UHGV virus genome: UHGV-0277313 | Source of the DNA: a virus | Strand: one strand, 5' to 3' | Length of the DNA: 64,000 nt | In this document: piece after piece, positions 17,797 to 60,540 of the stretch | Layout: the number at the start of each line of letters is the position of its first letter | Numbering within the stretch: the stretch's first letter is position 1 | Position numbers and translations under genes: made by a program | Notes under the pieces: model-generated | What the model saw: only the letters and a program-made list of their open reading frames with translations | What the model was told of the DNA's origin: nothing | The model's database searches: none

Positions 17797-17810
17797 AAGA
17801 GTGGTGAACA

Positions 17811-18176
17811 ATGAAAAAGGAATTGGTGGAATTATGGGAGAAACGAAGAGAGAACATTAACAAAACTTTAAGAGATGTTCAGTTTTCTATTGTCGAGAAA
17901 AATGTTCTTTATCGATTTTCTTTTGGTCGCGTAATGGAATCAGCAGAAAAAGCCTTGAAGGGCAATGATGACCCTAAAAATTTGGTGCTGGATTGTTTGT
18001 GTATTTGGTATAGAAAAGACAGTGTAGCAACAATCACATTTGCTATTAGCTTTAAATCAGATTTTGTGGATCGTATATCAACAGTCCCTAGAGAGAATAT
18101 CGAAATTGTTGATTCAGACGACGGTATTGTCTGTCAAGAAAAAGAAATTGGAACAGTCGTGATGGAGATGGTATGA
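17811..18176 (+). CDS. hypothetical protein, C-terminal-motif family (ends IGTVVMEMV)
   Basis: ORF after GAGTGGTG. Confidence 0.55.
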   Translation: MKKELVELWEKRRENINKTLRDVQFSIVEKNVLYRFSFGRVMESAEKALKGNDDPKNLVLDCLCIWYRKDSVATITFAISFKSDFVDRISTVPRENIEIVDSDDGIVCQEKEIGTVVMEMV

Positions 18177-18541
18177 TGAAGGATAAGAAATTGGAAAGAG
18201 AAACTAAACAGTTCGCAAGGTATATACGTAACCTGGAAAAAGTGTTGGCTGATAAGCAAGTATTCGTTGAGGACGAACGATATAAATTTCTGTTTGTTTT
18301 GCTTAATGAAACCGAAGCGTATAAACGGAATGCACTTTATCATAATCCTTCACATTACGAATTCAAGAGTTGTTTTCTAAGATACACTGGAGAGTGTGAA
18401 TATTTCAATGTGTATGTGGAGATTGAACTTTTGACACGTATCAGAAAATGTAAGAAGAAATCTTTACAATTACATGCGAAGGATAAAGATGTTATATTAG
18501 AGGAAATTCCTTGCGGGGAAGTGGTGTTGGGAGGGATATGA
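18173..18541 (+). CDS. hypothetical protein, C-terminal-motif family (ends GEVVLGGI)
   Basis: ATGA overlap with the upstream gene. Confidence 0.55.
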   Translation: MMKDKKLERETKQFARYIRNLEKVLADKQVFVEDERYKFLFVLLNETEAYKRNALYHNPSHYEFKSCFLRYTGECEYFNVYVEIELLTRIRKCKKKSLQLHAKDKDVILEEIPCGEVVLGGI

Positions 18542-30998: not shown

Positions 30999-31388
30999 AT
31001 GGTGTCTGATGCATTAAGAATAAAACAAAATCTTTGTATATTGAAAGATTGGTTATATAGTCAATATGTCATCGTATGCAATCCTTTTACAAATCAACAG
31101 GATGATGTAAGACATATCAAATTGTCTGATGAGATTGATGATATCATTTTAATGTTTTTAGGCGATTCAAAAAGTTATGTTGAGTTGATGTGTACAGGAA
31201 TGGTAAATGTTTATACCGTTAATGAAGAAGTGTTTTTAAGGTTGTTCATACCCAAAACATTACTAGAAAAACTAAATGCATTTAGCACAGATTGTTTCAG
31301 AATTAAAAGCAATGAAAAAACGTTTTACAATCACATCATTTATTTTGATCTTAAAGAGTGCAATCTTGTATTATTAGATAGCATTTAG
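30999..31388 (+). CDS. hypothetical protein, C-terminal-motif family (ends CNLVLLDSI)
   Basis: ORF downstream of TTGACA promoter-like sequence at 30943. Confidence 0.55.
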   Translation: MVSDALRIKQNLCILKDWLYSQYVIVCNPFTNQQDDVRHIKLSDEIDDIILMFLGDSKSYVELMCTGMVNVYTVNEEVFLRLFIPKTLLEKLNAFSTDCFRIKSNEKTFYNHIIYFDLKECNLVLLDSI

Positions 31389-31397
31389 GAGTCAATC

Positions 31398-31847
31398 ATG
31401 AAATCTAAAATTGGTGGCAAGTTTTTTAAAAAGTTGTCTGAACAGTCAACGGGAAAAGATAAGTGGTTAGATAAGTGGTTGAGTTCGACAATCTTTTTAG
31501 GTAACCGTTACGATAGAAGACGATTAAAATTTCTAATTTCTTTTTTGTTTGAGAATTCGACAAACAGACCTATCATTTATGATCCGGTAGATAAAGAAGA
31601 ATTGATCCCTGAACGTCTTTTAATCGTGTCTTTTGATGCATCTAGTGAAACATTTTATTTCAATATAAAATACAAAAATCACGACGCAAATGATAGGTGT
31701 TGCAACCTTGTCGTTTCAAAAGAATTGTGGGATGAATTGATTCATTTAGAAAATAAATTTTTTGATTTATGTTTTGATATTGATAAAAACTATATCGTTC
31801 ATGTCGTTAAACAACATGTAGGTCAAGCGTGTTTATCTAGTATATAA
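31398..31847 (+). CDS. hypothetical protein, LNRYDRRRLK sub-family (ends VGQACLSSI)
   Basis: FLGNRYDRRRLKFLISFLF box. Confidence 0.6.
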   Translation: MKSKIGGKFFKKLSEQSTGKDKWLDKWLSSTIFLGNRYDRRRLKFLISFLFENSTNRPIIYDPVDKEELIPERLLIVSFDASSETFYFNIKYKNHDANDRCCNLVVSKELWDELIHLENKFFDLCFDIDKNYIVHVVKQHVGQACLSSI

Positions 31848-41092: not shown

Positions 41093-41120
41093 AAAAATCT
41101 AATTGATTAAGGACACGCTA

Positions 41121-43391
41121 ATGAAATATCTAATTTTGCTTCGGGGTCTTCCTGGTTCTGGTAAAAGTTATTGGATAAAAGAAAACAAATTAGAAGATTA
41201 TACTATTTCTTCTGATAATGTTCGTTTGTTGTTTGCAACACCGTCTATTCCTTTTCAGGCTTGTTATAAGGATAGAGGAATTTCACAAAAGAATGACAAA
41301 GAGGTTTGGGATTTAATACATTCTTTAGTTGAACGTCGTTTAATGGAAGGCATGACAACTATCGTTGATGCAACACATTTGACTGTTAAGTCTATTAATT
41401 ATTACAAAAGCTTTTGTGCAAGTAATAATGTACGTTGTATCGTATTGGATTTTAATGTTAGCCTGGAAAGTGCTATTAACAATGATTTGTTAAGAAAAGG
41501 CACTTGTCGTTATGTAGGTTGTCAGATCATTAAAATAATGAATGACAAAAAAGAAGATGTGCCTAAATGGGTTGATTATACAACTGATAAAGAGCATGTT
41601 GTCAAGCTGTTTAATGACTGTATAGACGCGGTTGATTACAATGAGAAGTATGATAGCGTTGTAATCTTCGGTGATTTGCATGGTTGTTATGAACCTTTAA
41701 AACAGTGGTTTGACAAACATCCTGTTAACGACAAAACGAAATATATCTTTTGTGGTGATTATGAAGATAGAGGTATTCAACATAAAGAGTTGTTTGATTT
41801 TCTTTTAGAACATCGCAAAGATTTTAATTTCAAATTCTTAAAAGGCAATCATTCTTGTCGTTTGTTACAGATAGCTGAACGTGATAAAGATTCTATTCGT
41901 TATCCGGAATACTATAATACGTTTGAACAAATGAAAGATTTTGATCCTATTGAACTGAAAAAGTTTGTTCGGGATCAAGATGATATGGTTTACTTTACAT
42001 TTCGTAATAAAAACTTTTGTGTATCACATGGTGGTATTAGTTGTCTTCCGACTTTAAAGTTGAATAGTAGTGAATACATAAAAGGTCACGGAACATATCA
42101 AATGTCAAATGATGTGGATAATGATTTTATGTTCAATTCTTCTATTGAAGGTGATAACATTTATCAGGTACATGGTCATCGCAACGTTACAAATAGTGAT
42201 ATTCAAGTATGTGATCGTTGTTTTAATTTGGAAGGAGGAGTTGAGTTCGGTGGTGAATTACGAATTCTTCAGATTGATAGTGAAGGTAAATGTATACTGG
42301 ATTCTATTAGAAATACTGTTTTTAAAGAATTGACGGAAGGTTCGAAGATTGTCAATGAGTTTAAGTATTCTTCATTGATTAGAAAGTCGCAAAACCCAAA
42401 CGGTATTAGTTCTTATAACTTTAATCGAGACGCTTTTTTTGATAAAAAGTGGAATAGCTTGACGTGTACCGCAAGGGGCTTGTTTGTATATGATGATACA
42501 GATAAAGTTGCAGCAAGGTCTTTTAACAAATTCTTTAATTTGAATGAAACTAGTACTTCGAAATTAGATTATATTGTGAAGAATTGGTGTGGCGTCACGA
42601 ATGTTTATAAAAAGGAAAACGGATATTTAGGTATCATTTCTGTTGATGTTCGTGATAACAGTTTCATTTTAGCATCGAAAAGTCGTACTGATAAAGAGTT
42701 CGCAACGAATATTAGTAGAATCTTTAATGAAAAATTGTCAGAAGAACAACAGAACAATTTGAAGAAATGGTTATTGAAGGATGTGGATAAACATCAAGGT
42801 AATGCATATTCTTTAGTTGTTGAAGTAATTGATCCAATTAACGATCCGCATTTTGTTCAATATGATAAAGATGATATTGTTGTTTTGGATGCATTCGTTA
42901 ATGACTTTAATGAAAAAACTGTTTCATATGATGAACTGATTTCATTACATGACTTAACAGGTTTGACAATAAAAGAAAAGATTTGTGAGACGTGTGATCT
43001 AAAGACAACAATTCATGAACTTTGTAATACCAAAGATCATATCGAAGGATTTGTTTTAGAAGGGCATGATTATAATGGCAAGACTGTTCGTGTGAAGATT
43101 AAAACAAAATGGTACTTGATGTGGAAGAAGTTCAGATCAACAGGTGATTTCGATGAACGATTCGACATTAAAGATTTTTTGACAGTTGAACAACAAAAAT
43201 ACGCCAAACAAATCTATAGCCGAACAAAACAATTGATCGATTTACGTAATGGAGATACAGTTAGTACTGATGGTTCAATAAATGTAAATGATGAAATTGA
43301 CAATTATGTTATGTTTATTTATAGAGATTTGATTGGTGATTCGCGGATTAATATACCGAAAATTATACAATCTGTTGAAAATGTGAAATAG
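41121..43391 (+). CDS. polynucleotide kinase / metallophosphatase / ligase-like RNA-repair enzyme (CthPnkp-like)
   Basis: P-loop LLRGLPGSGKSYW; calcineurin-type phosphatase motifs VVIFGDLHGCYEPL, FCGDYEDRG, KGNHS; ligase-like motif I YKKENGY in the C-terminal third. Confidence 0.7.
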   Translation: MKYLILLRGLPGSGKSYWIKENKLEDYTISSDNVRLLFATPSIPFQACYKDRGISQKNDKEVWDLIHSLVERRLMEGMTTIVDATHLTVKSINYYKSFCASNNVRCIVLDFNVSLESAINNDLLRKGTCRYVGCQIIKIMNDKKEDVPKWVDYTTDKEHVVKLFNDCIDAVDYNEKYDSVVIFGDLHGCYEPLKQWFDKHPVNDKTKYIFCGDYEDRGIQHKELFDFLLEHRKDFNFKFLKGNHSCRLLQIAERDKDSIRYPEYYNTFEQMKDFDPIELKKFVRDQDDMVYFTFRNKNFCVSHGGISCLPTLKLNSSEYIKGHGTYQMSNDVDNDFMFNSSIEGDNIYQVHGHRNVTNSDIQVCDRCFNLEGGVEFGGELRILQIDSEGKCILDSIRNTVFKELTEGSKIVNEFKYSSLIRKSQNPNGISSYNFNRDAFFDKKWNSLTCTARGLFVYDDTDKVAARSFNKFFNLNETSTSKLDYIVKNWCGVTNVYKKENGYLGIISVDVRDNSFILASKSRTDKEFATNISRIFNEKLSEEQQNNLKKWLLKDVDKHQGNAYSLVVEVIDPINDPHFVQYDKDDIVVLDAFVNDFNEKTVSYDELISLHDLTGLTIKEKICETCDLKTTIHELCNTKDHIEGFVLEGHDYNGKTVRVKIKTKWYLMWKKFRSTGDFDERFDIKDFLTVEQQKYAKQIYSRTKQLIDLRNGDTVSTDGSINVNDEIDNYVMFIYRDLIGDSRINIPKIIQSVENVK

Positions 43392-48236: not shown

Positions 48237-48328
48237 GGAAATGTGGATGAGTGGTTTAAATCAGCGGTTTGCTAAACCGTCGGGCATAGAAATATGTCCC
48301 GCAAGTTCGAATCTTGCCGTTTCCGCCA
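48237..48328 (+). tRNA. tRNA-Ser (anticodon GCT), class II
   Basis: Acceptor GGAAATG/CGTTTCC; anticodon loop TTGCTAA; long variable arm CGGGCATAGAAATATGTCCCG; T-arm GCAAGTTCGAATCTTGC; discriminator G then CCA. Confidence 0.8.
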
Positions 48329-48355
48329 AAAGTTTCTGTAGAAGATACAGGTTAC

Positions 48356-48449
48356 GCCTTCGTCGTTCAATGGTTAGGACACTCGGCTTATACCCGAGCG
48401 AGCAGCTGATATCTGCGAAATCACAGTTCGAATCTGTGCGGAGGTACCA
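48356..48449 (+). tRNA. irregular tRNA-like gene (94 nt), identity unresolved
   Basis: Good T-arm CACAGTTCGAATCTGTG and an acceptor with G-U pairs ending ACCA; two candidate anticodon hairpins (CTCGG-CTTATAC-CCGAG and GCAG-CTGATAT-CTGC); does not fold as a canonical cloverleaf. Confidence 0.35.
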
Positions 48450-48481
48450 ATTTTAATTTGCATTTTGAAAGTTGGGTAGAT

Positions 48482-49312
48482 ATGCAATATTTGACAAAGC
48501 CTTTTGTAAAATGGGTCGGTGGTAAAAAACAACTTCTTGAGAAATTAGGATCTTGTATGCCCAAAGATTACAATCGTTATTACGAACCTTTTATTGGTGG
48601 TGGAGCTTTATTGTTTAATGTTCAACCTAAAGATGCTGTCATTAATGATACAAACAGTCAGTTAATAAATGTTTATAATCAATTAAAAACAAACATTGAA
48701 GATGTTATAAAAACGGTGAATACTTTAGATAGTAAAATGTGTAATGAAGATTATTATCTAGAAATTCGTGACCGTTATAATTCAAAAATCAAATCAAAAG
48801 AGTTAGATGCTGAATGTGCTTCTTTAATGATTTGGGTTAACAAACATTGTTTTAACGGGCTATATAGAGTCAATTCAAAAGGGTTGTTTAACGTCCCGTA
48901 TAACAATAAAGTAAATGGCGTTTCAATTGATGAATGTAATTTACGAAACATCAGCAATTATTTAAATTTAAATAAAGTTGATATTCGTGAAGGTGATTTC
49001 GAAGCCGCTTGTTCCGATGTGAAAAAAGGCGATTTGGTATATTTTGATTCGCCGTACGTTCCAGTAAGTAAAACAGCAAACTTTACAAATTATACAAAAG
49101 ATGGTTTTAGTTTAAATGATCACAAACGTTTGGCTAAATTGTTTTGCACTCTGGATAGTTTAGGTGCGTATATTATGTTAAGCAATAACGATGTTCCTTT
49201 GGTTCATGAGTTGTATAGTCAATTTAATGTGACTTCTGTTGATGCCCGTCGTGCTGTCAATAGAGATGCAACAAAAAGGAAAGGTAAGGAAGTAATCGTT
49301 ACCAATTTTTGA
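48482..49312 (+). CDS. dam: DNA adenine methyltransferase (Dam-like, alpha class)
   Basis: KWVGGKKQLL, FxGGG motif YYEPFIGGGALLF, catalytic DSPY; the ORF may extend to TTG 48458. Confidence 0.85.
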   Translation: MQYLTKPFVKWVGGKKQLLEKLGSCMPKDYNRYYEPFIGGGALLFNVQPKDAVINDTNSQLINVYNQLKTNIEDVIKTVNTLDSKMCNEDYYLEIRDRYNSKIKSKELDAECASLMIWVNKHCFNGLYRVNSKGLFNVPYNNKVNGVSIDECNLRNISNYLNLNKVDIREGDFEAACSDVKKGDLVYFDSPYVPVSKTANFTNYTKDGFSLNDHKRLAKLFCTLDSLGAYIMLSNNDVPLVHELYSQFNVTSVDARRAVNRDATKRKGKEVIVTNF

Positions 49313-49325
49313 TTAAACAGATAGT

Positions 49326-49412
49326 GGATGGGTCGCATAGCGGCAATTGCTGGGGACTGTAAATCCCCCGCCTGAAAAGGCTTCGTTGGTTCGAGTCCAA
49401 CCTCATCCACCA
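49326..49412 (+). tRNA. tRNA-Tyr (anticodon GTA), class II
   Basis: Acceptor GGATGGG/CTCATCC (one G-U); D-arm GCATAGCGGCAATTGC; anticodon stem GGGGA/TCCCC with loop CTGTAAA; long variable arm; T-arm GTTGGTTCGAGTCCAAC; ACCA. Confidence 0.75.
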
Positions 49413-49460
49413 AAAATTTTTAAAAAGATGAAAAAAAGTTCTTGACAATTAGCATTACAT

Positions 49461-49489
49461 TTGCTATAAATAATACATCAAGACGAGAT
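49461..49489 (+). promoter_or_regulatory. strong promoter copy B (AAAAAGTTCTTGACAattagcattacatttgcTATAAA)
   Basis: Duplicate of the 47904 promoter; TTGACA N17 TATAAA. Confidence 0.55.
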
Positions 49490-50335
49490 ATTAAACATTG
49501 TAAATAAGAAACAGCCAAATGAAAAGGCCTTTACGTGGCTTGGCTGATAAGTAGCTTTCTTCATTTAGTGAATTTAGTGAAACCAACTTTTTCATTGTTT
49601 AATATCTCATATAACTTGAACTGTATAAAAACAGTACGGCTGTATAGACATAAGATGATTCTGCCTATATAGTTTCCGTCATCAGTCTGATTACCTTTTC
49701 GTGGTTTGACGGATAAGTAGCGACCTTCAACTGTTTATTTTCAAGAGCGAAGCATTGATTATAAACTGTCGCGAAACTAAAGTTCTGACATGTAACAGTT
49801 GATGAAATTTCCGCATCGGTTGTTACAATATGATAATGGTCTTGACGAATTATAACCCCAATTTAACGTACGGTAATGCGGGAAAACATAGTTGTTATAA
49901 TGACTCAAGATCTTTCAAGCTATTTGTTTAGCCGTTTTCAGGAAAGTTTTGGGGTGAAAAACTTCCTTGTTATTATTTGTAAAATATGCCTTGATTTTTA
50001 ATTTTCTATAACTTCTAATAAAGTAGAATAGGAAATTTTAAAAGGTTTTAAAATTAAGTTGGAAGATTTGTGATTTTGTTATACAGAGTGACTGAATCAA
50101 TGGAAGAAAGAGGTCGTTTTGTTTAGATTGCAAACCCAATTTGATTTTAAATAAAAAGAAAATCTGAGTGAAATAAAGGTTTTCTCCTTAGAAATAAGGT
50201 TCTTTTTAGACTTAAGTCTTCTAAATTTATATAAAGTTTATATTTGTTTAGATAACTGAGTTATTTTATCGCAGTTTATTGTTTTAGACTCAAGTTCTAA
50301 ACATTTCAGATCGAATCTGAATGCTGCTTCTAATT

Positions 50336-50400
50336 CAATCCTTTATTCAAGGATTGTTTCCGGTGATTCGCGATAGTCAGTACCGGTACAAAATCTGACA
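50336..50400 (+). ncRNA. two-hairpin structured RNA element, copy 1
   Basis: CAATCCTT-TATT-CAAGGATTG, then TTTCCGGTGA-TTCGCGATAGTCAG-TACCGG...CTGACA; copy 2 at 54415 keeps both stems through compensatory changes. Confidence 0.4.
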
Positions 50401-50718
50401 TCTAGATAAATTGAAATATGTTTATCTGTTAGGTTCCTAAAACCTATCATCAAAATTTAGGCGTCAAGATTGTTTCTTGCAGGTTTCTTGTTCACCTGAC
50501 AAAATGAACAAGCAGTGCAAACGCTGTAGAATCGTTGGCGGGTTTGTCGTTGCCCATATACCGACCAGAAATGATACTTGCTGATATTCTGATAGAAGTT
50601 CCGCTAGACTGATGATCTTCATGTAAAGTGTGTCAAGCTTTACATTATGACATTCTTAATTGAATGCTGTCAAAGGTTTTGTGTATTGTACCTGCGTAGC
50701 AAAACAATACACTTTTAA

Positions 50719-50794
50719 GCCGAAATAGCACAGTTGGTAGTGCAGTTGATTTGTAATCATCAGGTCGTGGGTTCAAATCCCTCTTTCGGCACCA
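50719..50794 (+). tRNA. tRNA-Thr (anticodon TGT)
   Basis: Acceptor GCCGAAA/TTTCGGC; D-arm GCACAGTTGGTAGTGC; anticodon loop TTTGTAA (one stem mismatch); T-loop TTCAAAT; ACCA. Confidence 0.65.
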
Positions 50795-50995
50795 GTTTAT
50801 TTAGGTGTTTTGCAAAGTTTAATCTCATTCGCTCGTTAAACTTTCCTTTCAAAATTCTCATCATCTCCAATTTTGATAAATGCAAAACAGTTCAATTCGT
50901 TTGTTTACCTTCACGTGGTTTTGAATGTAAGTAACTTAAGGTTTTTAACAACTGCCGTAGATCGTTTACTTAAGTGAAACTAAATAACAAACAAT

Positions 50996-51082
50996 GCCCT
51001 TATGATGGAATCGGTAGACATAACAGATTCAGAATCTGTTGGAATTACTTCCGTACCTGTTCGAGTCAGGTTAGGGGCACCA
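50996..51082 (+). tRNA. tRNA-Leu (anticodon CAG), class II
   Basis: Acceptor GCCCTTA/TAGGGGC; anticodon stem ACAGA/TCTGT with loop TTCAGAA; long variable arm; T-arm ACCTGTTCGAGTCAGGT; ACCA. Confidence 0.8.
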
Positions 51083-51085
51083 TTT

Positions 51086-51179
51086 GGGTGGTTGGCAGAG
51101 TCTGGCTTATTGCAACGGTCTTGAAAACCGTCGAACATAGGAATATGTTCCGTGTGTTCAAATCACACACCACCCGCCA
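51086..51179 (+). tRNA. tRNA-Ser (anticodon TGA), class II
   Basis: Acceptor GGGTGGT/ACCACCC; anticodon stem ACGGT/ACCGT with loop CTTGAAA; long variable arm CGAACATAGGAATATGTTCC; T-arm GTGTGTTCAAATCACAC; GCCA. Confidence 0.8.
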
Positions 51180-51185
51180 ATTTAT

Positions 51186-51278
51186 ACCCCGTTGTAGTCA
51201 TGGTGACCATCAATTGAATGCCTATAGCTCCAGTCAATTGGTACGGGAATGCTGTTCGAATCAGTCTACGGGGTGCCA
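51186..51278 (+). tRNA. irregular tRNA-like gene (93 nt), anticodon arm not resolvable
   Basis: Perfect 7-bp acceptor ACCCCGT/ACGGGGT + G + CCA and T-loop GTTCGAATC, but the T-stem is displaced by one nt and there is no canonical anticodon hairpin; contains near-palindrome TCATGGTGACCATCA. Confidence 0.3.
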
Positions 51279-51353
51279 ATTTTTTAAACAAGCCTTTACA
51301 CGCGTCATGATGACGATAGTCCAATATACATTTGAAGGCTTTTTTAAAAATTG

Positions 51354-51443
51354 GAAAATGACTGAGTGGTTATAAGGTGGGTGACTTGGCGAAGTGCCAA
51401 TTAACTTAAAATGTTAAGACGTAGGTTCGAATCCTGCTTTTCC
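51354..51443 (+). tRNA. irregular tRNA-like element (T-arm GTAGGTTCGAATCCTGC, acceptor TGGAAAA/TTTTCCA, no encoded CCA)
   Basis: Canonical T-arm and a 7-bp acceptor, but 22 extra nt between acceptor and the candidate anticodon hairpin TTAAC-TTAAAAT-GTTAA; probably a pseudo-tRNA or non-canonical tRNA. Confidence 0.25.
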
Positions 51444-51470
51444 AATTTTTTCAATTTTCTTGAATTTTAA

Positions 51471-51544
51471 ATAAGCGTAGCACAATGGTAGTGCATCGGT
51501 CTCCAAAACCGAGGATGAGAGTTCAATTCTTTCCGCTTATGCCA
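51471..51544 (+). tRNA. tRNA-Trp (anticodon CCA)
   Basis: Acceptor ATAAGCG/CGCTTAT; D-arm GCACAATGGTAGTGC; anticodon stem TCGGT/ACCGA with loop CTCCAAA; GCCA. Confidence 0.85.
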
Positions 51545-51560
51545 TTTCCTACATTTTTAA

Positions 51561-51637
51561 CGGGGTTTAGCGCAGTCTGGTAGCGCGCCTGCCTTGGGAG
51601 CAGGAGGTCGAGTGTTCGAGTCACTCAATCCCGACCA
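51561..51637 (+). tRNA. tRNA-Pro (anticodon TGG)
   Basis: Acceptor CGGGGTT/AATCCCG; D-arm GCGCAGTCTGGTAGCGC; anticodon stem CCTGC/GCAGG with loop CTTGGGA; T-arm GAGTGTTCGAGTCACTC; ACCA. Confidence 0.85.
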
Positions 51638-51824
51638 TATTAAGAATTCAGGTGAAAGCTAGTGAGTAACCTGTATCGTTTAACCCCACTGTGCGTCAAC
51701 AGGGTTTTGTACAGACAAAAATGAAACTGTATCGGGACGGAAAGTGTCCGATTATGCCGAAATGCCGACGGGCAAATCGTAAAGTTGTGGACCCGGTGGA
51801 CCACATTAAAAACCCACCTACCGT

Positions 51825-51847
51825 TTCCTTTGAAAAAACAAGGATTG
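51825..51847 (+). repeat. TTCCTTTGAAAAACAAGGATTG repeat, copy 1 of 3
   Basis: Other copies at 52149 and 52348; forms hairpin CCTT-TGAAAAACA-AGG. Confidence 0.5.
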
Positions 51848-52148
51848 TAAGATTGGATGATTTAGACTTATGATGAAACAGAATTAGGTTTTATTGATTA
51901 AGCATCAAATAAATCTTTGGTTCGTTCGGGACTTAGTCCGCACATTGAGGGATTAACGTCAGGTTAATGTACTTAGTAAGCCAAAGATGAATTGAAAAAT
52001 TCTGATATAAAACGTATTTTGGTTTTATAAATGTTCTTTTGGTGCTTAATCAATAGAAAATGGAGCATATTGTAATTTCTGAGAATGATATCTAATTAGA
52101 AATGAAAATACCCTAGGGTTCGGTTGAATATGTGATAGAACTCACCAT

Positions 52149-52169
52149 TTCCTTTGAAAAACAAGGATT
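52149..52169 (+). repeat. TTCCTTTGAAAAACAAGGATT repeat, copy 2 of 3
   Basis: Followed by a second CAAGGATTG. Confidence 0.5.
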
Positions 52170-52347
52170 AAGAGCAAGGATTGCCCTGAGATATTATGAA
52201 GGCGTATTATGAGGAAAAGAAACATAATGTGCTTTTATAATAAAATAAGGGTGTGGTTTAATTATATAGGGTAAATTGGTTCTTTTCCAACTCATTTATT
52301 ACTAGGATTAAAATCAGGTAGTGTATCCTGCCTCGTCCTTTTAAAAA

Positions 52348-52369
52348 TTCCTTTGAAAAACAAGGATTG
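52348..52369 (+). repeat. TTCCTTTGAAAAACAAGGATTG repeat, copy 3 of 3
   Basis: Exact motif. Confidence 0.5.
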
Positions 52370-52585
52370 AAGTTTGCATTTGGTGTAACTTTGGTTAAAT
52401 AGTCTTAAGCCTATGCGCAAGGTGTTTTAAGAAACGTTTGACGGGGGGCTATAGCAGATTCTAGAGGCTGTAAATAGTTTGTAGCATACTTAGAGTGGAT
52501 TTTAAGAGGTTATGTGTGAATCATAGGTGCAAAAATAAATTTTTAAATAAAGTAATCATTTAGATGTGATTACACTATTTGTCAG

Positions 52586-52614
52586 GCTGTTCGAGTGTTC
52601 GAGTCACTCAATCA
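52586..52614 (+). pseudogene. tRNA-Pro 3'-half fragment (duplicated T-arm region)
   Basis: GTTCGAGTGTTCGAGTCACTCAATC matches the tRNA-Pro T-arm at 51608-51632 and then diverges (..ATCATGA instead of ..CCCGACCA). Confidence 0.45.
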
Positions 52615-52625
52615 TGACTAACTAT

Positions 52626-52700
52626 TCCGTGATAGCTCAATGGTAGAGCAATCGGCTGTTAACCGATTGGTTGTAGGTTCGAATCCTACTCACGGAGCCA
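52626..52700 (+). tRNA. tRNA-Asn (anticodon GTT)
   Basis: Acceptor TCCGTGA/TCACGGA; D-arm GCTCAATGGTAGAGC; anticodon stem ATCGG/CCGAT with loop CTGTTAA; T-arm GTAGGTTCGAATCCTAC; GCCA. Confidence 0.85.
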
Positions 52701-53114
52701 TTGATATCTTATAAATGTTTTGGTTCGTGTGTGTGGTTCCAATTAATCAAAAAATGCACTGCTTGAGCTTAATCGGGCTGTAATTAAGTAACCTTTGGAA
52801 GACGTGGTTCGACTTCCCCTATAGAGGTGATATCGGTGAATGTCCTCGGCTCTTTCCTTCAAGAGTGGCGTAAATGTAAGTAACGATTACAAAAGGATGA
52901 TGACAATAATTTGTCCGTGAGTGATTCCCAAAAGAAGTACGTTAAGCTTCTAAACTTTAAAACATTTCTTTGAGTGCTAACATGCTCAATGAAACAAGGT
53001 TTTAACAGTTTCCTTGTAAATCTTAAACTGTCATAGTGCTTCATCTTATAAAGGTTTTTTGTTGTAATTCCAAAGATGAAGTTTGTTTTTTAAACTGAAC
53101 TAAGAGGTCTGGAA

Positions 53115-53462
53115 ATGATCGTTAAAAAAATAACAGAACGTACCGTTTATCCGTCGTCATATGAATCTTTATCTTTGCCAGAAAAGAGCGATATTGATTC
53201 ATTTATTAAGCAGTCAATTAAGGTTGCTTATAAGGCAGGAAAAACATTTCGTGTAGGTGATTATGTTGGAAGGAAAGCTTTTCCTGATTGGTCAAATACA
53301 CCTTTGGATCCGATTTATCAATATCATAAAAGAATTGGTACAACTGATCCAACGAAACAGGCAGGTATTGATGTAGGTCATCTGTTTAAAAATGCAATGG
53401 ATGAAAGTCCATTTTGTTTTGAAATTCATAAAGGGCATGTAAATTACTATACGCCTGTTTAA
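53115..53462 (+). CDS. hypothetical protein inside the tRNA island
   Basis: 115-aa ORF after AAGAGGTCTGGAA. Confidence 0.5.
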   Translation: MIVKKITERTVYPSSYESLSLPEKSDIDSFIKQSIKVAYKAGKTFRVGDYVGRKAFPDWSNTPLDPIYQYHKRIGTTDPTKQAGIDVGHLFKNAMDESPFCFEIHKGHVNYYTPV

Positions 53463-53545
53463 ACAGTGTGAGTTTGATGCAACAGCGTTTATTCCTAACG
53501 CAAATTCCATTCTTTTCAGTTCTGTGGTTGCTAAAACTGAATAAT

Positions 53546-53632
53546 GCACTTGTGGTGGAATAGGTAGACACGCAAGCTTGAGGTGCTTGTGAAAGAAATT
53601 TCGTGCTTGTTCGAGTCAAGTCAGGTGCACCA
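53546..53632 (+). tRNA. tRNA-Leu (anticodon GAG), class II
   Basis: Acceptor GCACTTG/CAGGTGC (one G-U); anticodon stem CAAGC/GCTTG with loop TTGAGGT; long variable arm; T-arm CTTGTTCGAGTCAAG; ACCA. Confidence 0.75.
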
Positions 53633-53676
53633 GTTTAGCAACACGAGAGACCAGCTTCCTTGTTTCTTGTTTGTTG

Positions 53677-53714
53677 CCAGCCAATCGACGAAGGCTGTAG
53701 TTACAGATTTCTGG
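53677..53714 (+). repeat. CCAGCCAAT..CGAAGGCTG..GTTACA element, copy 1 (about 45 nt downstream of tRNA-Leu)
   Basis: Copy 2 at 54843 sits about 40 nt downstream of tRNA-Arg; the CGAAGGCT core recurs inverted at 55012. Confidence 0.45.
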
Positions 53715-54379
53715 TTTTCGGTGAAATCGAAAAGTCAAATAACAATCAGTTTATTTGGCTGGTTGTTTCATAATAGGTTGCGGGTGATGAACCGATCCTT
53801 TCTATAAAAAGTAAGGGTGGGCTAATAAAATGCTTCCTTGATTGGAAGTTAAGCAAATCGATGGTTATCATCTTCAATCCCGCAATCGCGATTGTAATTT
53901 TATCGTCCCACCTTTATTTTACAAGTTTCTTGGTTTTGCTAAGCTTATTTAAAGGGCTTAGAGACCTTTTATCGCGGATTAGTGAAATGGTATCTTAAAA
54001 CTTCACACAAACCAGAGAAAAATAATGCAAGGTGAATAAAATTTTTCTTGCTTTTAGATTCTGGTTATGTTACTTTGATTAAGTTGATGGCGGATATGAG
54101 ATATTAAAGCTGTGCCATATATTTCTGGTAATGTCCGTTATTGATACCAGTCTTTGGTGGTTATCAGATATGCCCCAATATGAGTAAGGCTATTGATTGG
54201 TTACTTTGATTGGCATTTGAAAATACCGTAAGTTGTTCGGCAATGTGTGCGACAGTAACTGAGTTTAACCACATCAGGAGAGATGAGCTTGCTCATCGAT
54301 ATAGTCCCTGATACTGGAAAAGCCGATTTCATTGGTTTTCATTGAAATTGGTAACTATCACATTAGGCTCTTACCTTAA

Positions 54380-54408
54380 AATTACCAGTTCGAGTCTGGT
54401 GTCCGCCC
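54380..54408 (+). pseudogene. tRNA 3' fragment (T-arm ACCAGTTCGAGTCTGGT + acceptor GTCCGCC + C + CCA) without a matching adjacent 5' half
   Basis: Canonical T-arm and CCA; the only complementary 5' acceptor (GGCGGAT) lies about 300 nt upstream at 54087. Confidence 0.35.
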
Positions 54409-54414
54409 CCAATT

Positions 54415-54482
54415 CAATTCCTTACATGGAATTGTTTCTGGTAAGTTCGCGCGATAGTCAGTACCAGAACCTAAACCTGACA
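54415..54482 (+). ncRNA. two-hairpin structured RNA element, copy 2
   Basis: CAATTCC-TTACAT-GGAATTG, then TTTCTGGTAAG-TTCGCGCGATAGTCAG-TACCAG...CTGACA; covaries with copy 1. Confidence 0.4.
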
Positions 54483-54726
54483 AAGTCTTAGCATTGACTT
54501 TAAACTGCTTAACCTTATGCATAGAGATAGGATAAATGCTTCAGACTTTAAGCTGTCATCTTAAAGGGCTTTGCAAATTTACCGTAAATTGCCAGAAAAG
54601 AAGAGGCTGTGATAGTGTCTAGAATTCTTCCGATTGTGAGTTCGATAATCTCATAGATTTGACCGTCCATCACTTTTAAAGTGGCTCTCTTAGCTGGTTC
54701 TGAGTGGTCATAAAACCAGCTTTAAT

Positions 54727-54803
54727 GATTCCATAGCTCAACTGGATAGAGCCACAGACTTCTAATCTGTAGGTTGCAAGTTCAAGTCTTGCTGGGATCG
54801 CCA
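54727..54803 (+). tRNA. tRNA-Arg (anticodon TCT)
   Basis: Acceptor GATTCCA/TGGGATC; D-arm GCTCAACTGGATAGAGC; anticodon stem ACAGA/TCTGT with loop CTTCTAA; T-arm GCAAGTTCAAGTCTTGC; GCCA. Confidence 0.85.
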
Positions 54804-54842
54804 AAGTTTCTTTTTGTGATGATCTTACCTTTCGGGTCATCA

Positions 54843-54882
54843 CCAGCCAATAAGCGAAGGCTGATGTTACAACTTTCTCAAG
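54843..54882 (+). repeat. CCAGCCAAT..CGAAGGCTG..GTTACA element, copy 2
   Basis: See copy 1 at 53677. Confidence 0.45.
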
Positions 54883-55111
54883 TGTGAAAGTGCAGAGCTT
54901 GTTCGTGGATAAGGTTATTGCTTATTCCATACTATGTATGACAGGTTTTCCTTTGCTCCTTTAAAAATCGATCAATGAAGGTGTCAGCAGAATGCTTGTA
55001 TGTACTACAAGTTAAGCCTTCGTAAAAAGGAAGAAACATTGCTTTAGCATGCCTGTCATAGCGATGGTAATTTTGCCATCCCTTCATTGATCGTGAATAT
55101 TATTTTCGGGA

Positions 55112-55185
55112 TCGACTAAAGGTAGGTCAACACACTTTGACTGTGTTAATGTTGGTTCAAATCCAGCTCCCGAAACCAATTTTTA
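55112..55185 (+). tRNA. tRNA-Gln (anticodon TTG)
   Basis: Acceptor TTCGGGA/TCCCGAA; anticodon stem ACACA/TGTGT with loop CTTTGAC; T-arm GTTGGTTCAAATCCAGC; ACCA. Confidence 0.75.
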
Positions 55186-55531: not shown

Positions 55532-56824
55532 CTAATCTTCACCATTGGCATAAACAAAAAAGAAGCCAGGCTGTATTTGTGTAGTAGTATATGTTGCCGT
55601 TGAGTCTATACCTAAAATCATAACATCACCTTTTAAAACCGGCAACAAAACACAAATTTCAGCGTTATTACCGTTTGCTTTGCTTATTGATTTTGTATGT
55701 TTACTTCTCACTTCAAAAACAATCCATGATCCTTCTTTTGAACATATAAAATCACCAGTAAACATTCCGTTCGCAGGTGCAAGATAACGTGTACCATTTG
55801 TTCCTAAAGTCAATTGAATATATTTTCCTGAAGGCATTGCCATGCCAGATATATCTGAACGTGTATATGTATTAATTGGTGGTGTTATAGAAGGTTCAAA
55901 AGAAGTAATGTTAAATGCACTATTTGTTGAAATATCATTAGCTATAATAATTTCTCTTGATTTGCCATAAACACCAGCGCCATTGCTTCTAAATGTTTCA
56001 TTTGTTTTTGGTTTGTACCAAACGGAATCATCTGAAACTGGTTGATTATTTTGTATAAAATATTTTCCAGTTCGAATCAGAATACCTTGATCGTTTATTG
56101 ACAATGGTTGTCTATCTGGATCTTTGATTTGGTATGAATAACTGGTTAATGAAACCTTATCAAATGTTTTTGTTATTGATTTATATGTCCCATCTTCATT
56201 CAGACCGTCAGCGAATTGATATTTTACACCAGGTAACGCAAATGCAGTTGAACCGATATATCCAAATCCGTTAAAGATTTGATCAACAGAAACTATATTA
56301 TTACCTGTTGTGGCGCTGTTTGTGCAAATACAAATTGGGAGACTCATAGTAACTGATAACGAACCGTCGTTATATGATTCCATTTTATTTGTTGTTAAAT
56401 TGTAAAAAGCTCCAGTATAATTGTCAGGTACTGTTTTACCGGAATTATTGTTTCCTCTTCTGAATAAACCATTACCATTAGATGAAACAAAAAGAGGAAG
56501 TGTTAATGCGGTGGAAGTTGGCTCTGTATATGTTAAATCTTTTGTTAATATAATAATGTCAAATTTTCTTGTGATACCATCAGTTTCAAATCCATTAGGA
56601 ATATAAACTTTAGTTCCAGCTTTGATTGTTATAACACCATTATTTAGTTCCGCTTTAACAGTTTGCGGAATTTCAAGAATTCGATTGGTTGTATAATTGA
56701 TTACGTTAGTTTTTAATTTATTATCAACGTTATCATTAGTTGAATAATCACCAACATTTTGTTTATTTTGTAATGTTTGTGGCAATTGATTTACTGTTGT
56801 TTGTTTAACTGTATAGCTTGACAT
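55532..56824 (-). CDS. putative tail fibre / receptor-binding protein (minus strand)
   Basis: 430 aa, rich in S/T/N/G and predicted beta-strand segments; no enzymatic motif; structural role inferred from composition only. Confidence 0.4.
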   Translation of the reverse strand: MSSYTVKQTTVNQLPQTLQNKQNVGDYSTNDNVDNKLKTNVINYTTNRILEIPQTVKAELNNGVITIKAGTKVYIPNGFETDGITRKFDIIILTKDLTYTEPTSTALTLPLFVSSNGNGLFRRGNNNSGKTVPDNYTGAFYNLTTNKMESYNDGSLSVTMSLPICICTNSATTGNNIVSVDQIFNGFGYIGSTAFALPGVKYQFADGLNEDGTYKSITKTFDKVSLTSYSYQIKDPDRQPLSINDQGILIRTGKYFIQNNQPVSDDSVWYKPKTNETFRSNGAGVYGKSREIIIANDISTNSAFNITSFEPSITPPINTYTRSDISGMAMPSGKYIQLTLGTNGTRYLAPANGMFTGDFICSKEGSWIVFEVRSKHTKSISKANGNNAEICVLLPVLKGDVMILGIDSTATYTTTQIQPGFFFVYANGED

Positions 56825-56957: not shown

Positions 56958-57614
56958 ATGACTATTTATAAAGGTTCACAAAAAGTAAAGCAGATTGCCA
57001 GTAAAAATAAATCTGTTAAAAGGATTTATTGTGGAACGAAATTAATATTTGGAACAAAAGCCAGTAAATTATTGGTTTATACAACATCTGGTTCAATAAC
57101 GATACCTAATAATACAATATCATGTATAGTTCATGTTGTTGGAAGTGGTGGAAGTTCTGGTGGTACTAATCCATATGCTCATGAACTTCATTGTGCATCT
57201 GGTGGTGGGTCAGCAGGATATTCACGAAAACAATATAATTCTAGCCTATCTGGACAAACTATCAATTTTACAGTAGGTCAACCTATATCGTCATATTGCC
57301 AAAATGGTCAAAATTCATCTTTTCTTGCTCAAATCGGTGGAATGGGTTTTGCAGGAATAGCTGCAACAGGCGGTGCATCTCAACCTGGTGGAGTCGGCGG
57401 TGCAGCTTCAGGAGGTGATGTTAATACAAATGGTTCACAAGGAGAGCAAGGTTGCTGGCTAGCTTGGGGCGGCGGCAGTGGTGGTCAAGGTAGAGGTGCA
57501 ACAGGTCATACAATAAATGGTGTTCAATATGGGTTTGGTGGAACATGTACTGGCGTAGGTTCCCCAACATCTGGTAGTGGTTGTGTCATCGTTGAGTTAA
57601 TTTATTGGGCATGA
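56958..57614 (+). CDS. glycine-rich protein (putative fibre/structural or adhesin-like)
   Basis: GSGGSSGG, GGASQPGGVGGAASGG and WGGGSGGQGRGATG tracts; divergent from the minus-strand fibre-like gene. Confidence 0.45.
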   Translation: MTIYKGSQKVKQIASKNKSVKRIYCGTKLIFGTKASKLLVYTTSGSITIPNNTISCIVHVVGSGGSSGGTNPYAHELHCASGGGSAGYSRKQYNSSLSGQTINFTVGQPISSYCQNGQNSSFLAQIGGMGFAGIAATGGASQPGGVGGAASGGDVNTNGSQGEQGCWLAWGGGSGGQGRGATGHTINGVQYGFGGTCTGVGSPTSGSGCVIVELIYWA

Positions 57615-57693
57615 TTCTTTACTTTTTTAGTTGATTATTTTTAATGATTATGTTAATGTAAATCCATTGTTTGAGAATTAGAAGGAGAGAACA

Positions 57694-57993
57694 GTGGACT
57701 TTACTTTGGCTGCTATGGCAAGTGTTCCATATTCTGCTAACAAGTTGTTTTTATTAGCAACTTGTTTGGTATCGTGTATTTATTCAACGGTTTATTTAAT
57801 ACACTCCAAAGATAAACTAGTTACAGAAAGTAACTATAAATTTCTTTTATGTATTTTAATAGTAGCAATCGTCGATGCAACTTTTATTTTCTTGTGCTGG
57901 GATAGGTTGACTTTTGATGAAATATGTGGAATGTTTATATGTGCACCTATTGTTTATTTGATCACATCTGTGTTAAAAAAGGTTAATAAATGA
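57694..57993 (+). CDS. small membrane protein (2-3 TM segments; holin-like size)
   Basis: GTG start after GAAGGAGAG; hydrophobic segments. Confidence 0.4.
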   Translation: MDFTLAAMASVPYSANKLFLLATCLVSCIYSTVYLIHSKDKLVTESNYKFLLCILIVAIVDATFIFLCWDRLTFDEICGMFICAPIVYLITSVLKKVNK

Positions 57994-58346
57994 AACATTT
58001 TTATTGGTATGGTGGTTATATTAAAAATAAAAAGCAATATCAACGTGTTGAATTCATAATTGCACAAGAAGATAAAAAACTGTATCAGTTCGTTGATTAC
58101 AAACTTTTTAAAGAGATTAAAACTGAAACAAAAGATATTTGGAAAAACGCATCTAAATTAATTCAGGAAGCAGGACATTGGAGTGATGAAGCGGATGCGG
58201 CTTTAGCCTTTAATGGTTATTTGTGGTCTGAAATAACAGAACAAGAATTTAAAGAAATCTATCAGACAGGGACTGTTGAGGAAAAAGACTTGCGAATGAT
58301 TTATTTGCAGTGGCTAAAGGATACAGGAATTAACAGAATCAGATGA
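57990..58346 (+). CDS. hypothetical protein
   Basis: 118-aa ORF, ATGA-coupled. Confidence 0.5.
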   Translation: MKHFYWYGGYIKNKKQYQRVEFIIAQEDKKLYQFVDYKLFKEIKTETKDIWKNASKLIQEAGHWSDEADAALAFNGYLWSEITEQEFKEIYQTGTVEEKDLRMIYLQWLKDTGINRIR

Positions 58347-59482
58347 TAAAAGTTTATAAGACCAAATTGAATTTAACATATAATTAGCGTAAGCAATTTA
58401 TGGCTAATGCTGGTTGTGCTCGTTGGGCTTATAACTATGTTGTCGGTAAAGAAACTGAATCTTTAAAGAGCAATAAATATATTCCTGTTAATGATTTAAG
58501 AAAAGAAGTTACAAAATTAAAACAAACAGATGAATTAAATTGGTTATTTAATTATGATTGTGATATTGTTAAGCAATCAATGAAAGATGCTGATAAAGCA
58601 TTCAGAACATTTTTTAAGAATAAACAGAAATTTGGATTTCCTAAATTTCATTCTAAACATTCATCTAAACAATCTTTTTATGTTGATGGTGTTAAATTAA
58701 AAGTTTGGTCGAATAAAATCAGAGTACCAAAAGTAGGTTATGTTAAGTTATATGAAAAAGATTATATTCCAACGGATGTTAAAAGTTATACCAATCCAAG
58801 AATTTTATTTGATGGAATAAGTTGGTATATTTCTGTTGGTGTAAAAGAAGATGATCCTAAAAAGATTACAAATAATGTTGTTATTGGCATTGATTTAGGA
58901 TTAAAGGAATTAGCAACATGTTCCAATGGACTTGTTATCCATAATATATCCAAATCAAAAAGATATAAAAAGTTAGAAAAGAAATTAAAAAGACAACAAA
59001 GGCAAATGTCAAGATCCTTAGAAAGGAATAAGATTGGAAAGAAATTTGTCAAGACAAAGAACTTTGAGAAATATAGAAAGAGATATTTAAAGACAAGTAT
59101 TAAGATGAATAATCTGAAGATAGATTATTTCAATAAATCTATTGTAGATATCATGAAAACCAAGTGTTGTACAATAGTTCTCGAAGATTTAGCTGTAAAG
59201 AATATGCAGAAAAATAGAAAAATATCTAATGCTTTTCAGAAATCTGCTATTTCTCAGTTTAGATCAAGATTGATTCAGAAAGCTGAAATGCTTGGTGTCA
59301 GTATATCTATCGCAGATAGATTCTTTCCAAGTTCAAAGATGTGTTCTCATTGTGGACATATTAAAAAAGATCTGACATTGTCAGATAGAATATATCATTG
59401 TGATATATGTGGGTTTGAGGTTGATCGTGATTTAAATGCTGCGATCAATCTCAAGAATACCGTGAGATCCACGGGAATTTAA
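58343..59482 (+). pseudogene. tnpB: IS605/IS200-family tnpB (RNA-guided nuclease) interrupted by an in-frame TAG at codon 15
   Basis: MIKVYKTKLNLTYN-TAG(58385)-RKQFMANAGCARWAYNYVV... in a single frame; the TAG aligns with the conserved Q of the TnpB N-terminal KAYKFRLYPTKEQ box; downstream RuvC motifs IGIDLG and ...CSHCGHIKKDLTLSDRIYHCDICGFEVDRDLNAAINL; no tnpA nearby. Confidence 0.7.
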
Positions 59483-59580
59483 GCCTTCTATTGATTTGTT
59501 AAGATTATACTTGACAAATTCATGTAGGAATTATAAGATTAAATACTTAGTTATAACTTATAAAGATCGGAAAAAGAATA

Positions 59581-60540
59581 ATGAGTAATGTTGATCTAAT
59601 TGAATGGTGGTTGCATCAATTTAAATTTACCGAACAAGATATGAACTTGTTGCAATCGTATGAAACTGATTTTATTATTACAAATAAAGATTACGATATT
59701 GTAAGAGAAAAAGCTTTGTCGATGTTGCCTGTACATTCAATTGATTATCATATTCATTTTGATACTTGTGCAACAAACATAATTGATAATTTATTTTTCA
59801 AGTATGTCGATGATGACACATTAGTCATTACAACAATGAGCGAACATCCTTCTGTAAAAAAGAATTTAGAGAAGTGCAAGAATGTAATATACATGTGTTG
59901 TAACGGAAAAGTGATTGAAGATTTTTATAAGCAATCGGACAAAATAGCTAATTTTAAAAAGGTATTTGTTTATAATATAGCTTTATCTGTTGGTGATGGG
60001 CATATAACATATAATGACAATTTATTGGAGCTGAAAAGGAATCTAGATTCATTAGGTATCAAATCAGTTTTTGTATTAGATGCTGTACAAGAATTGTTTA
60101 TGTTGCCGCGTGATTATTCAATCTATGATTATATTATTGGTACTGCACATGCATTCGTCACGAAATACGATACTGGAGTACTTTTAAGTAAAGAGTATAT
60201 ACCGTCAGCTAAATCGTGTTTATCACAAGGTGATCAGTATTTAGATTTATTGTCAATGTTGATAAAACATAAAGAACAATTATATCAATTTAAATATGTA
60301 ATGGTGCAAGTATTTGGAAAATATTTATCGACAGATAGCGCTTTAAGTGTAACAGAAAACGGGCCGTATGTATTCAACTTGATTGATAAAAAGAATCGAT
60401 TGGTTGGAATTACTGAAGCAGATCCAATTGCACAACCTGAAAATACTAATGCAACATTAAGAGCTTGCGAATCTTTATTGGACCAAAATACGTTTATAAA
60501 TAAAGTGGAAACGATTAAATATCTGTTGTCGGAGAACTAA
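59581..60540 (+). CDS. hypothetical protein (319 aa)
   Basis: ORF; no confident motif. Confidence 0.55.
   Translation: MSNVDLIEWWLHQFKFTEQDMNLLQSYETDFIITNKDYDIVREKALSMLPVHSIDYHIHFDTCATNIIDNLFFKYVDDDTLVITTMSEHPSVKKNLEKCKNVIYMCCNGKVIEDFYKQSDKIANFKKVFVYNIALSVGDGHITYNDNLLELKRNLDSLGIKSVFVLDAVQELFMLPRDYSIYDYIIGTAHAFVTKYDTGVLLSKEYIPSAKSCLSQGDQYLDLLSMLIKHKEQLYQFKYVMVQVFGKYLSTDSALSVTENGPYVFNLIDKKNRLVGITEADPIAQPENTNATLRACESLLDQNTFINKVETIKYLLSEN

Follow-up and report, generated by a model that had tools for sequence, protein, structure and literature searches.

The tnpB gene in virus genome UHGV-0277313 belongs to a 1,250-bp tnpB-only element of the IS607 type and carries an in-frame amber codon. The account favoured here, with a probability of roughly 0.85 for the whole, is that this element has been freshly inactivated by a single CAG-to-TAG change. 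The analysis was based on a 64,000-nucleotide stretch of the genome (the window; Table 1), which is contained in a 276,920-bp ENA scaffold. PHROG matches to rIIA, RNA ligase/PNK and an HNH endonuclease (Table 1) identify the phage as a T4-like gut jumbo phage, of ∼277 kb, with relatives that encode a T4-type portal and prohead protease, and the element sits at a GG between two of its genes. A DNA search of the window locus against GenBank phages produced no match, no relatives were found in IMG/VR and the GTDB genomes contained only distant TnpBs.

Table 1. Positions of the features discussed, numbered from the first base of the window.
Feature	Position	Strand	Remarks
HNH endonuclease	5375–6550		PHROG match
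rIIA	7607–9916		PHROG match
RNA ligase/PNK	41103–43391		PHROG match
Upstream phage gene, 118 aa	57990–58346	+	Last 8 codons and TGA come from the inserted element
GG, left junction	58319–58320	+	Taken as target core dinucleotide; filled versus vacant comparison
Inserted tnpB-only IS607-type element, 1,250 bp	58321–59570	+	Filled versus vacant comparison
tnpB frame	58343–59482	+	379 sense codons, one internal stop at codon 15
In-frame TAG, invariant Gln15 codon	58385–58387	+	CAG in sister phage
tnpB difference from sister	58385		T (window), C (sister); TAG versus CAG
tnpB difference from sister	58768		Synonymous
tnpB difference from sister	59025		Missense; R (window), K (sister)
tnpB difference from sister	59452		Synonymous
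Residual 360-aa ORF from Met20	58400–59482	+	Gene callers' product, without residues 1–19
Predicted guide-RNA (omegaRNA/reRNA) scaffold	59369–59568	+	Conserved helices
Helix h2	59369–73/59564–68	+	Long-range, just before terminal GG
Helix h4	59414–27/59442–55	+	14 bp, inside RuvC-III coding segment
Helix h5	59460–64/59470–74	+	
Helix h6	59484–88/59524–28	+	
Helix h7	59493–502/59511–20	+	
Helix h8	59531–37/59557–63	+	
Sigma-70-like TTGACA-N17-TAAGAT	59511–59539	+	Right end, faces downstream gene; 10/12 matches
GG, right junction	59569–59570	+	Last two bases of element; filled versus vacant comparison
Predicted 20-nt guide and target, AAAAAGAATAATGAGTAATG	59571–59590	+	Identical to vacant L022 allele
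Downstream phage gene, 319 aa	59581–60540	+	Start inside predicted target

The interrupted gene and the origin of its amber codon

The frame from the ATG at 58343 to the stop at 59480–59482 translates as MIKVYKTKLNLTYN-stop-RKQFMANAG..., and a protein with glutamine placed at the TAG was used for the Pfam comparison and the homolog search. Comparison of this Gln-repaired protein with the TnpB profiles of Pfam, a check proposed in the first-pass annotation, gave matches above the curated cut-offs for HTH_OrfB_IS605 (residues 1–45), OrfB_IS605 (169–291) and Cas12f1-like_TNB (304–370), covering PF12323, PF01385 and PF07282. The first of these matches spans the TAG, and the 14 N-terminal codons are therefore in the frame that was originally traced. 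Gln15 shows no variation across an alignment of 70 homologs (50–92% identity) and lies opposite a glutamine in the solved ISFba1 TnpB structure (8IAZ), which bears out the claim that the TAG falls on a conserved Gln; K3, K6, K8, L9, L11, N13 and Q15 are all invariant or nearly so in these homologs. The RuvC-like motifs and zinc finger, previously described as intact, are complete in the alignment: D184, E281 and D363 align with D194, E290 and D371 of ISFba1, and the zinc-finger cysteines C334/C337/C353/C356 are retained and invariant.

An AlphaFold model of the protein (pLDDT 84.6) has residues 2–10 as a β-strand and Gln15 near the start of a helix formed by residues 13–41, with pLDDT values of 88–93 in this region. 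The closest solved structure by sequence is 8IAZ (E 1.4 × 10−61, with the alignment beginning at residue 2 in both proteins), which is also the best hit of a fold search with the model (35% identity, E 4 × 10−31) that returned TnpB and Cas12f structures. ISDra2 TnpB is more distant by sequence (E 6 × 10−34), and the ranking by fold is the same. The window gene is thus a TnpB of the ISFba1 type, a predicted RNA-guided RuvC nuclease.

A sister phage represented by two loci from different runs (L005 and L006) shares the gene order of the window and is 97% identical to it across 8.2 kb. Its tnpB, with CAG at codon 15, has the uninterrupted frame that the window copy lacks, and the two genes differ at only four bases (Table 1). 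The 379-aa product of the sister gene (P0001, encoded on a 297-kb contig), which was returned by the homolog search, is distinguished from the repaired window protein solely by one R-to-K replacement, and in the other close relatives with a full-length call position 15 is likewise encoded as Gln. Since the sister has CAG and only three other differences in tnpB, the TAG is a derived and recent allele that arose by a single C-to-T transition; the CAG-to-TAG change, anticipated from the window alone, is seen directly in this allele, which is also the uninterrupted copy that was to be looked for in related phages.

Sequencing or assembly error could also produce a change of one base relative to the sister allele. 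However, the identical TAG is present in all four of the separately assembled contigs inspected (ERZ28615576, ERZ27290672, ERR2641316 and ERR2641346), which have different accessions and are 100% identical to the window across the shared DNA, and the exact truncated product of 360 residues is encoded on 12 contigs, among them the scaffold containing the window and eight contigs of 0.2–1 Mb. Error can therefore be discounted almost completely. With the TAG allele on 12 contigs and the CAG allele on two, the former is clearly not strongly deleterious; continued synthesis of some product could account for its being tolerated.

Two further homologs called at 360 residues (P0015 and P0017) were considered as additional TAG alleles and rejected upon inspection of loci L007 and L008. 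In L008 the N-terminal codons are open but overlap tnpA, and the gene caller passed over them for that reason. L007 contains a 2-nt indel at the start of tnpB. The TAG of the window copy and the indel of L007 indicate that decay of copies has been seen more than once, as would be expected of a selfish homing element once vacant targets grow rare.

Decoding of the amber codon and its consequence for the product

The phage reads TAG as a stop. The 91 genes on the plus strand of the window end in TAA (48), TGA (31) or TAG (12), and all 12 TAG-ended genes encounter another stop or the start of the next gene within a few codons, the TAG frequently lying inside the ribosome-binding site of that gene (TAGGAG...ATG). 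In the window only tnpB is split by an in-frame TAG; the sole other pair of open reading frames in the same frame (30999–31388 and 31398–31847) has its TAG, at 31386, within TAGGAGtcaatcATG, a normal stop with a ribosome-binding site. Treating TAG as a sense codon barely alters the coding length in ORF statistics, and the large and structural genes of related phages are intact under the standard code (code 11).

A search for tRNAs with ARAGORN at default settings identified 13 at 48237–55178, none with a CUA anticodon, and Rfam at E ≤ 5 gave 12 solid and two weak tRNAs in this cluster. Relaxed ARAGORN settings (-ps80, introns allowed) added only poor calls and again no CUA anticodon, and no further tRNAs occur in the 10 kb downstream of the window; the window and loci L001/L023 scanned in this way amount to ∼74 kb of a genome of 277 kb. 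At 52225–52298 a 'tRNA-Stop(tta)' call (anticodon UUA) was rejected because its acceptor stem is mismatched and it lacks both a T-loop consensus and an Rfam signal.

The many tRNAs of this gut jumbo phage and the occurrence of TAG where Gln is expected would be compatible with a recoded genetic code in which TAG specifies Gln (code 15), as used by some gut phages. The near absence of any gain in coding length, the prompt second stops or starts behind the 12 TAG-ended genes, the restriction of the interruption to tnpB, the lack of a suppressor tRNA in the ∼74 kb scanned and the intact large genes of related phages under code 11 all speak against this, and the ORF statistics and inspection of the TAG-ended genes rule out global recoding for the visible 74 kb. 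The probability of such a code is very small.

Decoding of this one TAG as Gln, either by a suppressor tRNA (carried on the remaining ∼200 kb of the phage genome or supplied by the host) or by programmed read-through, would give a full-length and possibly regulated TnpB, and amber suppression was one of the two explanations originally offered. Consistent with it are the 12–13 tRNA genes of the phage, the intact remainder of tnpB and the wide distribution of the TAG allele. In E. coli without a suppressor, moreover, near-cognate tRNA-Gln makes glutamine the most frequent insertion at UAG, and a C directly after UAG gives a weak termination context. However, the tRNA set, which had been singled out as a check, contains no CUA anticodon at relaxed thresholds in the window or the 10 kb beyond. 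Furthermore, TAG terminates 12 of the 91 genes, and efficient suppression would therefore lengthen those proteins. The sister strain has a plain CAG, and a programmed signal therefore lacks the support that a conserved TAG would give; the other full-length close relatives likewise have a Gln codon there. Suppression is thus highly unlikely. Even less weight can be given to the amber codon as a gate, with Gln15 restored by a suppressor tRNA from the unseen part of the genome or from particular hosts; were this true, production of the nuclease would be confined to one stage of infection or to some hosts, which would limit self-damage while the homing drive was kept.

With TAG read as a stop, translation from 58343, coupled to that of the upstream gene through an ATGA overlap, would yield a peptide of 14 residues. 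The most that could be expected beyond this is a protein re-initiated at Met20, without the first β-strand and the initial turns of the helix, or a trace of full-length protein from rare near-cognate read-through. Only 12 nt separate the TAG from the Met20 ATG, a distance at which terminating ribosomes could resume translation, and the protein starting there retains every catalytic and zinc-finger residue, so that a working or newly functional nuclease or DNA-binding protein of 360 residues might be made. However, no Shine–Dalgarno motif is present within 20 nt upstream of Met20, and none of the intact homologs examined starts at this position (the short L008 call being the gene caller's choice). 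Starting at Met20 removes strand 2–10 and the beginning of helix 13–41, both confidently modelled, together with the seven invariant or nearly invariant positions listed above, and the 360-aa product no longer matches HTH_OrfB_IS605. In ISFba1 TnpB the N-terminal segment is part of the TAM-interacting domain and the REC1 region (PMC11061315). A functional Met20 protein is therefore considered unlikely.

Given the loss of N-terminal modelled elements rich in invariant residues, the window copy is probably a null or a severe hypomorph. Apart from the TAG, neither the ORF nor the right end has decayed, a state compatible with a very recent mutation and equally with continued function. A freshly inactivated TnpB module, the other of the two original explanations, is the best reading. 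In all probability the single nonsense change marks an early stage in this selfish element's decay, and what is observed is very likely the ordinary decay of a mobile element.

Element boundaries, family and predicted guide RNA

The boundaries of the element and its vacant allele are directly visible from a 133,846-bp contig (NODE_125), on which the window's locus is vacant (L022) and the family copy occupies a different one (L014). The vacant allele reads ...GTGGCTAAAGG/AAAAAGAATAATGAGTAATG... and the window allele reads ...GTGGCTAAAGG/ATACAGGAATTAACAGAATCAGATG...tnpB...AAAGATCGG/AAAAAGAATAATGAG..., the left junction being GTGGCTAAAGG/ATACAGG... in the window versus GTGGCTAAAGG/AAAAAG... in the vacant form. 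The inserted segment is therefore the one given in Table 1, with GG at both junctions. It comprises 22 nt to the left of the ATG that match the tnpA 3′ terminus of full copies exactly, tnpB itself and a right end of 88 nt with GG as its last two bases. Copies in seven unrelated contexts lose their homology at 59570: the right side of all copies is alike through ...TTATAACTTATAAAGATCGG and diverges immediately beyond. No target-site duplication is present in either of two filled/vacant pairs (window versus L022 and L014 versus window). In the second of these the L014 insertion site is empty in the window at 41105–41123, GATTAAGG(A)CACGCTAATG, where the ribosome-binding site of the RNA-ligase gene contains the GG.

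The insertion has altered the upstream gene, the TGA of which overlaps the tnpB start (ATGA). Its product has 113 residues and ends in ...LQWLKEKE in the vacant L022 allele, whereas the window version ends in ...LQWLKDTGINRIR, the terminal KEKE having been replaced by DTGINRIR. The sigma-70-like motif in the right end is the best in the region and is partly conserved among copies; its function is uncertain because it overlaps helix h7.

The same TnpB family (84–92% identity) occurs at five or more different loci in related jumbo phages, in keeping with mobility of the element, and these copies differ on their left side. In copies with 84–86% TnpB identity (L008 and L017), a 201-aa MerR/Resolvase serine-recombinase TnpA overlaps the start of tnpB, and these tnpA-bearing copies share the junction sequence of the window. 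A second group (L007, L014/15 and L016) lacks tnpA and has a conserved left end of ∼125 nt starting with GGGATCTTAACAG. The third retains only the last ∼20 nt of tnpA and comprises the window and L005 as well as L018–21, in which the junction is slightly different. A TnpA-mediated deletion from the left-end core to an internal pseudo-site would give exactly the 22-nt junction of the window.

The element is of the IS607 type rather than the IS200/IS605 type, because close copies carry a serine-recombinase TnpA, the insertion is bounded by GG and the closest structure is that of an IS607 TnpB. Termini at GG, a strict GG target and the absence of duplications are hallmarks of IS607 (PMC10690162, PMC13565253, PMC6188088), and the insertion likewise has no terminal inverted repeats. 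The first-pass annotation had described a solo tnpB of the IS605 family. Its first part stands, in that no tnpA adjoins the gene, but the family label does not: none of the nine contexts contains an HUH (Y1) TnpA, neither subterminal hairpins nor a TTAC- or TTGAT-like target was found where these had been proposed as a check, and the target is instead ...AAGG. Together with the MerR/Resolvase TnpA and the greater distance of ISDra2 TnpB, this GG target rules out assignment to IS200/IS605.

Eight distinct right-end sequences, taken from 140 nt before the stop to the element end, were aligned and gave an RNAalifold consensus with eight helices and 53 pairs. Paired cells amount to 97.2%, compared with 35–45% in slid controls, and four pairs in four helices show compensatory changes versus 1.0 ± 0.9 in shuffles (four being reached in 4 of 500 shuffles). 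A cmscan search of stretches of up to 371 nt at the right end identified neither RAGATH-18 nor any other Rfam family at E ≤ 10. The fold fits a guide-RNA scaffold that would be specified jointly by the 3′ part of the ORF and the right end of 88 nt.

The guide is predicted to be the flank from 59571 (AAAAAGAAUAAUGAGUAAUG), running into the downstream gene, following the arrangement described in PMC11061315 and PMC10690162. This flank matches the vacant L022 allele exactly and occurs once in the window. A guide RNA had been proposed for the 3′ flank at 59483–59580; the right-end part of the scaffold does lie there, but the right end stops at 59570, the predicted guide occupies 59571 onward and the predicted scaffold also overlaps the 3′ end of the ORF.

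The vacant L022 target is preceded by AAAGG, and the five bases to the left of vacant targets at five loci (AAAGG, TAAGG, GAAGG, AAAGG and AAAGG) suggest a TAM of NAAGG. The element's own end is ATCGG or ATTGG, unlike NAAGG, and this difference would prevent self-cutting. An intact nuclease would cut genomes without the insertion at AAAGG followed by the 20-nt target, and the element would then be copied into the cut genome by recombination with a filled one, amounting to guide-dependent homing.

Comparison with known systems and implications

ISFba1 TnpB (8IAZ; PMC11061315) is the best match by sequence and fold, is of the same size class (384–387 residues versus 379 in the window) and has the same RuvC D-E-D residues and zinc finger. 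The two systems share a G-rich target-adjacent sequence and a guide RNA that spans the 3′ part of the gene and the right end, each of these being a prediction in the present case. However, the ISFba1 guide RNA is derived from RAGATH-18, to which the window right end shows no match, and its TAM is AGGAG or GAGGG rather than the NAAGG suggested here. The window element also resides in a lytic-type jumbo phage instead of a Firmicutes chromosome, lacks tnpA and carries the amber codon.

Similarities to the IS607 family (PMC6188088, PMC10690162) involve GG junctions without target duplication or terminal inverted repeats, close copies in which the 201-aa MerR/Resolvase TnpA overlaps the tnpB start, and insertion downstream of a G-containing motif that would double as the TAM. 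The window copy departs from this family in keeping only the 22-nt tnpA tail and no left end, whereas other solo copies have a left end of ∼125 nt. The IS200/IS605 TnpB of ISDra2 (8EXA, 8H1J) is a homologous RNA-guided nuclease that follows the same domain logic overall and likewise has its guide at the right end, but the present element has no HUH (Y1) TnpA and no subterminal hairpins, and uses a GG target in place of the TTAC or TTGAT type.

The element also resembles the free-standing Seg and Mob homing endonucleases of T4-like phages (PMC13565253) as a selfish nuclease gene that lies between conserved phage genes, is present or absent among co-circulating relatives, is predicted to cut the vacant allele and is prone to decay once fixed. 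Recognition would here be RNA-guided from the flank rather than protein-based, and the window element, unlike Seg and Mob, has defined transposon-type boundaries.

The amber codon is in itself of little weight: it is an ordinary nonsense change in a selfish gene that can be dispensed with, and TAG acting as a stop shows that stop codons are not recoded in this phage. The finding also adds an uncatalogued IS607-type element that inserts into the GG of ribosome-binding sites and has a predicted guide RNA without a match to RAGATH-18. The modest value of the finding lies in the vacant L022, intact L005 and amber window alleles, which form a natural allele series in co-circulating T4-like gut jumbo phages, in which the decay stage of the homing cycle is caught, and the exact match of the predicted guide to the vacant allele makes RNA-guided, TnpA-independent homing between phages directly testable.

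Target sites and right end of the IS607-type element

Every copy of the IS607-type element, that in the window and those at other loci in related phages (L007, L014, L016 and L018), is inserted at the GG of a Shine-Dalgarno sequence, and in each case the distance to the downstream start codon is 7–10 nt (59570/59581 in the window). The genome is AT-rich (33.5% GC), and Shine-Dalgarno sequences are where GG-containing motifs concentrate. A further target that is filled in related phages (L014/L015) is vacant in the window; its GG (41111–41112) lies within the ribosome-binding site of an RNA-ligase/PNK gene, the true start of which is the ATG at 41121. Relative to the right flank of the L014 copy, the window carries an extra A after this GG, which would mismatch position 1 of the predicted guide of that copy.

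The promoter-like sequence in the right end (TTGACA-N17-TAAGAT) is partially conserved among the copies and overlaps helix h7, a part of the predicted guide-RNA scaffold. It may serve to offset the polarity caused by the insertion, or the match may be a coincidence.

In another copy of this TnpB family, at L007, a 2-nt insertion directly follows the tnpB start codon (positions 548–560; ATGATCACAAAG versus ATGATAAAAG). Either this copy was inactivated independently, or the insertion is an assembly error, the contig being 2.4 kb long.

Features discussed in the text (window coordinates unless stated)
Feature	Coordinates	Remarks
HNH endonuclease gene	5375–6550	Free-standing, 391 aa; adjoins methyltransferase-like gene
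Vacant target of IS607-type element	41105–41123	Filled in L014/L015
tRNA-Phe call	51378–51445	ARAGORN; anticodon AAA (unusual); 68 nt
Split tRNA gene, halves	53973–53993 and 54359–54411	From comparison with L022
Insertion in split tRNA gene	~53994–54358	From comparison with L022
Hypervariable blocks	55750–56250 and 57250–58000	Window versus sister phage L005
Near-consensus sigma-70-type promoter sequence	59511–59539	Inside right end of element, directed toward downstream gene
Second TnpB-like gene	L001 ~17063–18368 (window equivalent ~65460–66770)	397 aa, intact; just past window end

A second TnpB family and the irregular tRNA genes

The TnpB-like gene in L001, a locus reaching past the end of the window, belongs to a different family from the TnpB of the IS607-type element, with PF07282 as its sole recorded domain. 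Its site is empty in L005 and L022 (...TTTGATAT|TGTAATTCC...). Insertion is 3' of GATAT or GGTAT without duplication, resembling the behaviour of IS200/IS605 elements.

A tRNA-Met gene (CAT) that is whole in the sister phage L022 is interrupted after GGTAT in the window by an insertion of ~365 nt. Since the first ~30 and last ~60 nt of this insertion match the two ends of the second, unrelated TnpB element, it looks like a MITE-like non-autonomous derivative. The anticodon loop in the 3' half of the tRNA is altered from CTCATAC to CTCTTAC. This split gene probably accounts for one of the irregular tRNAs remarked on in the first-pass annotation. The tRNA-Phe call scores just 20 bits against Rfam, under the gathering score, so the call may be spurious or mark a degenerate gene.

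Gene arrangement and variable genes

The stop/start layout is compact: at 20460, 29797, 31386 and 34546, among others, the TAG stop of one gene also opens the ribosome-binding site of the next, in the form TAGGAG or TAGGT followed by ATG.

In the hypervariable blocks a 250-nt stretch can hold as many as 70 differences, compared with ~1 elsewhere. The blocks are located in a 430-residue minus-strand gene and a Gly-rich 218-residue gene, the products of which are probably receptor-binding or tail-fibre-like proteins. The HNH endonuclease gene is likely to represent another selfish homing element within this region.
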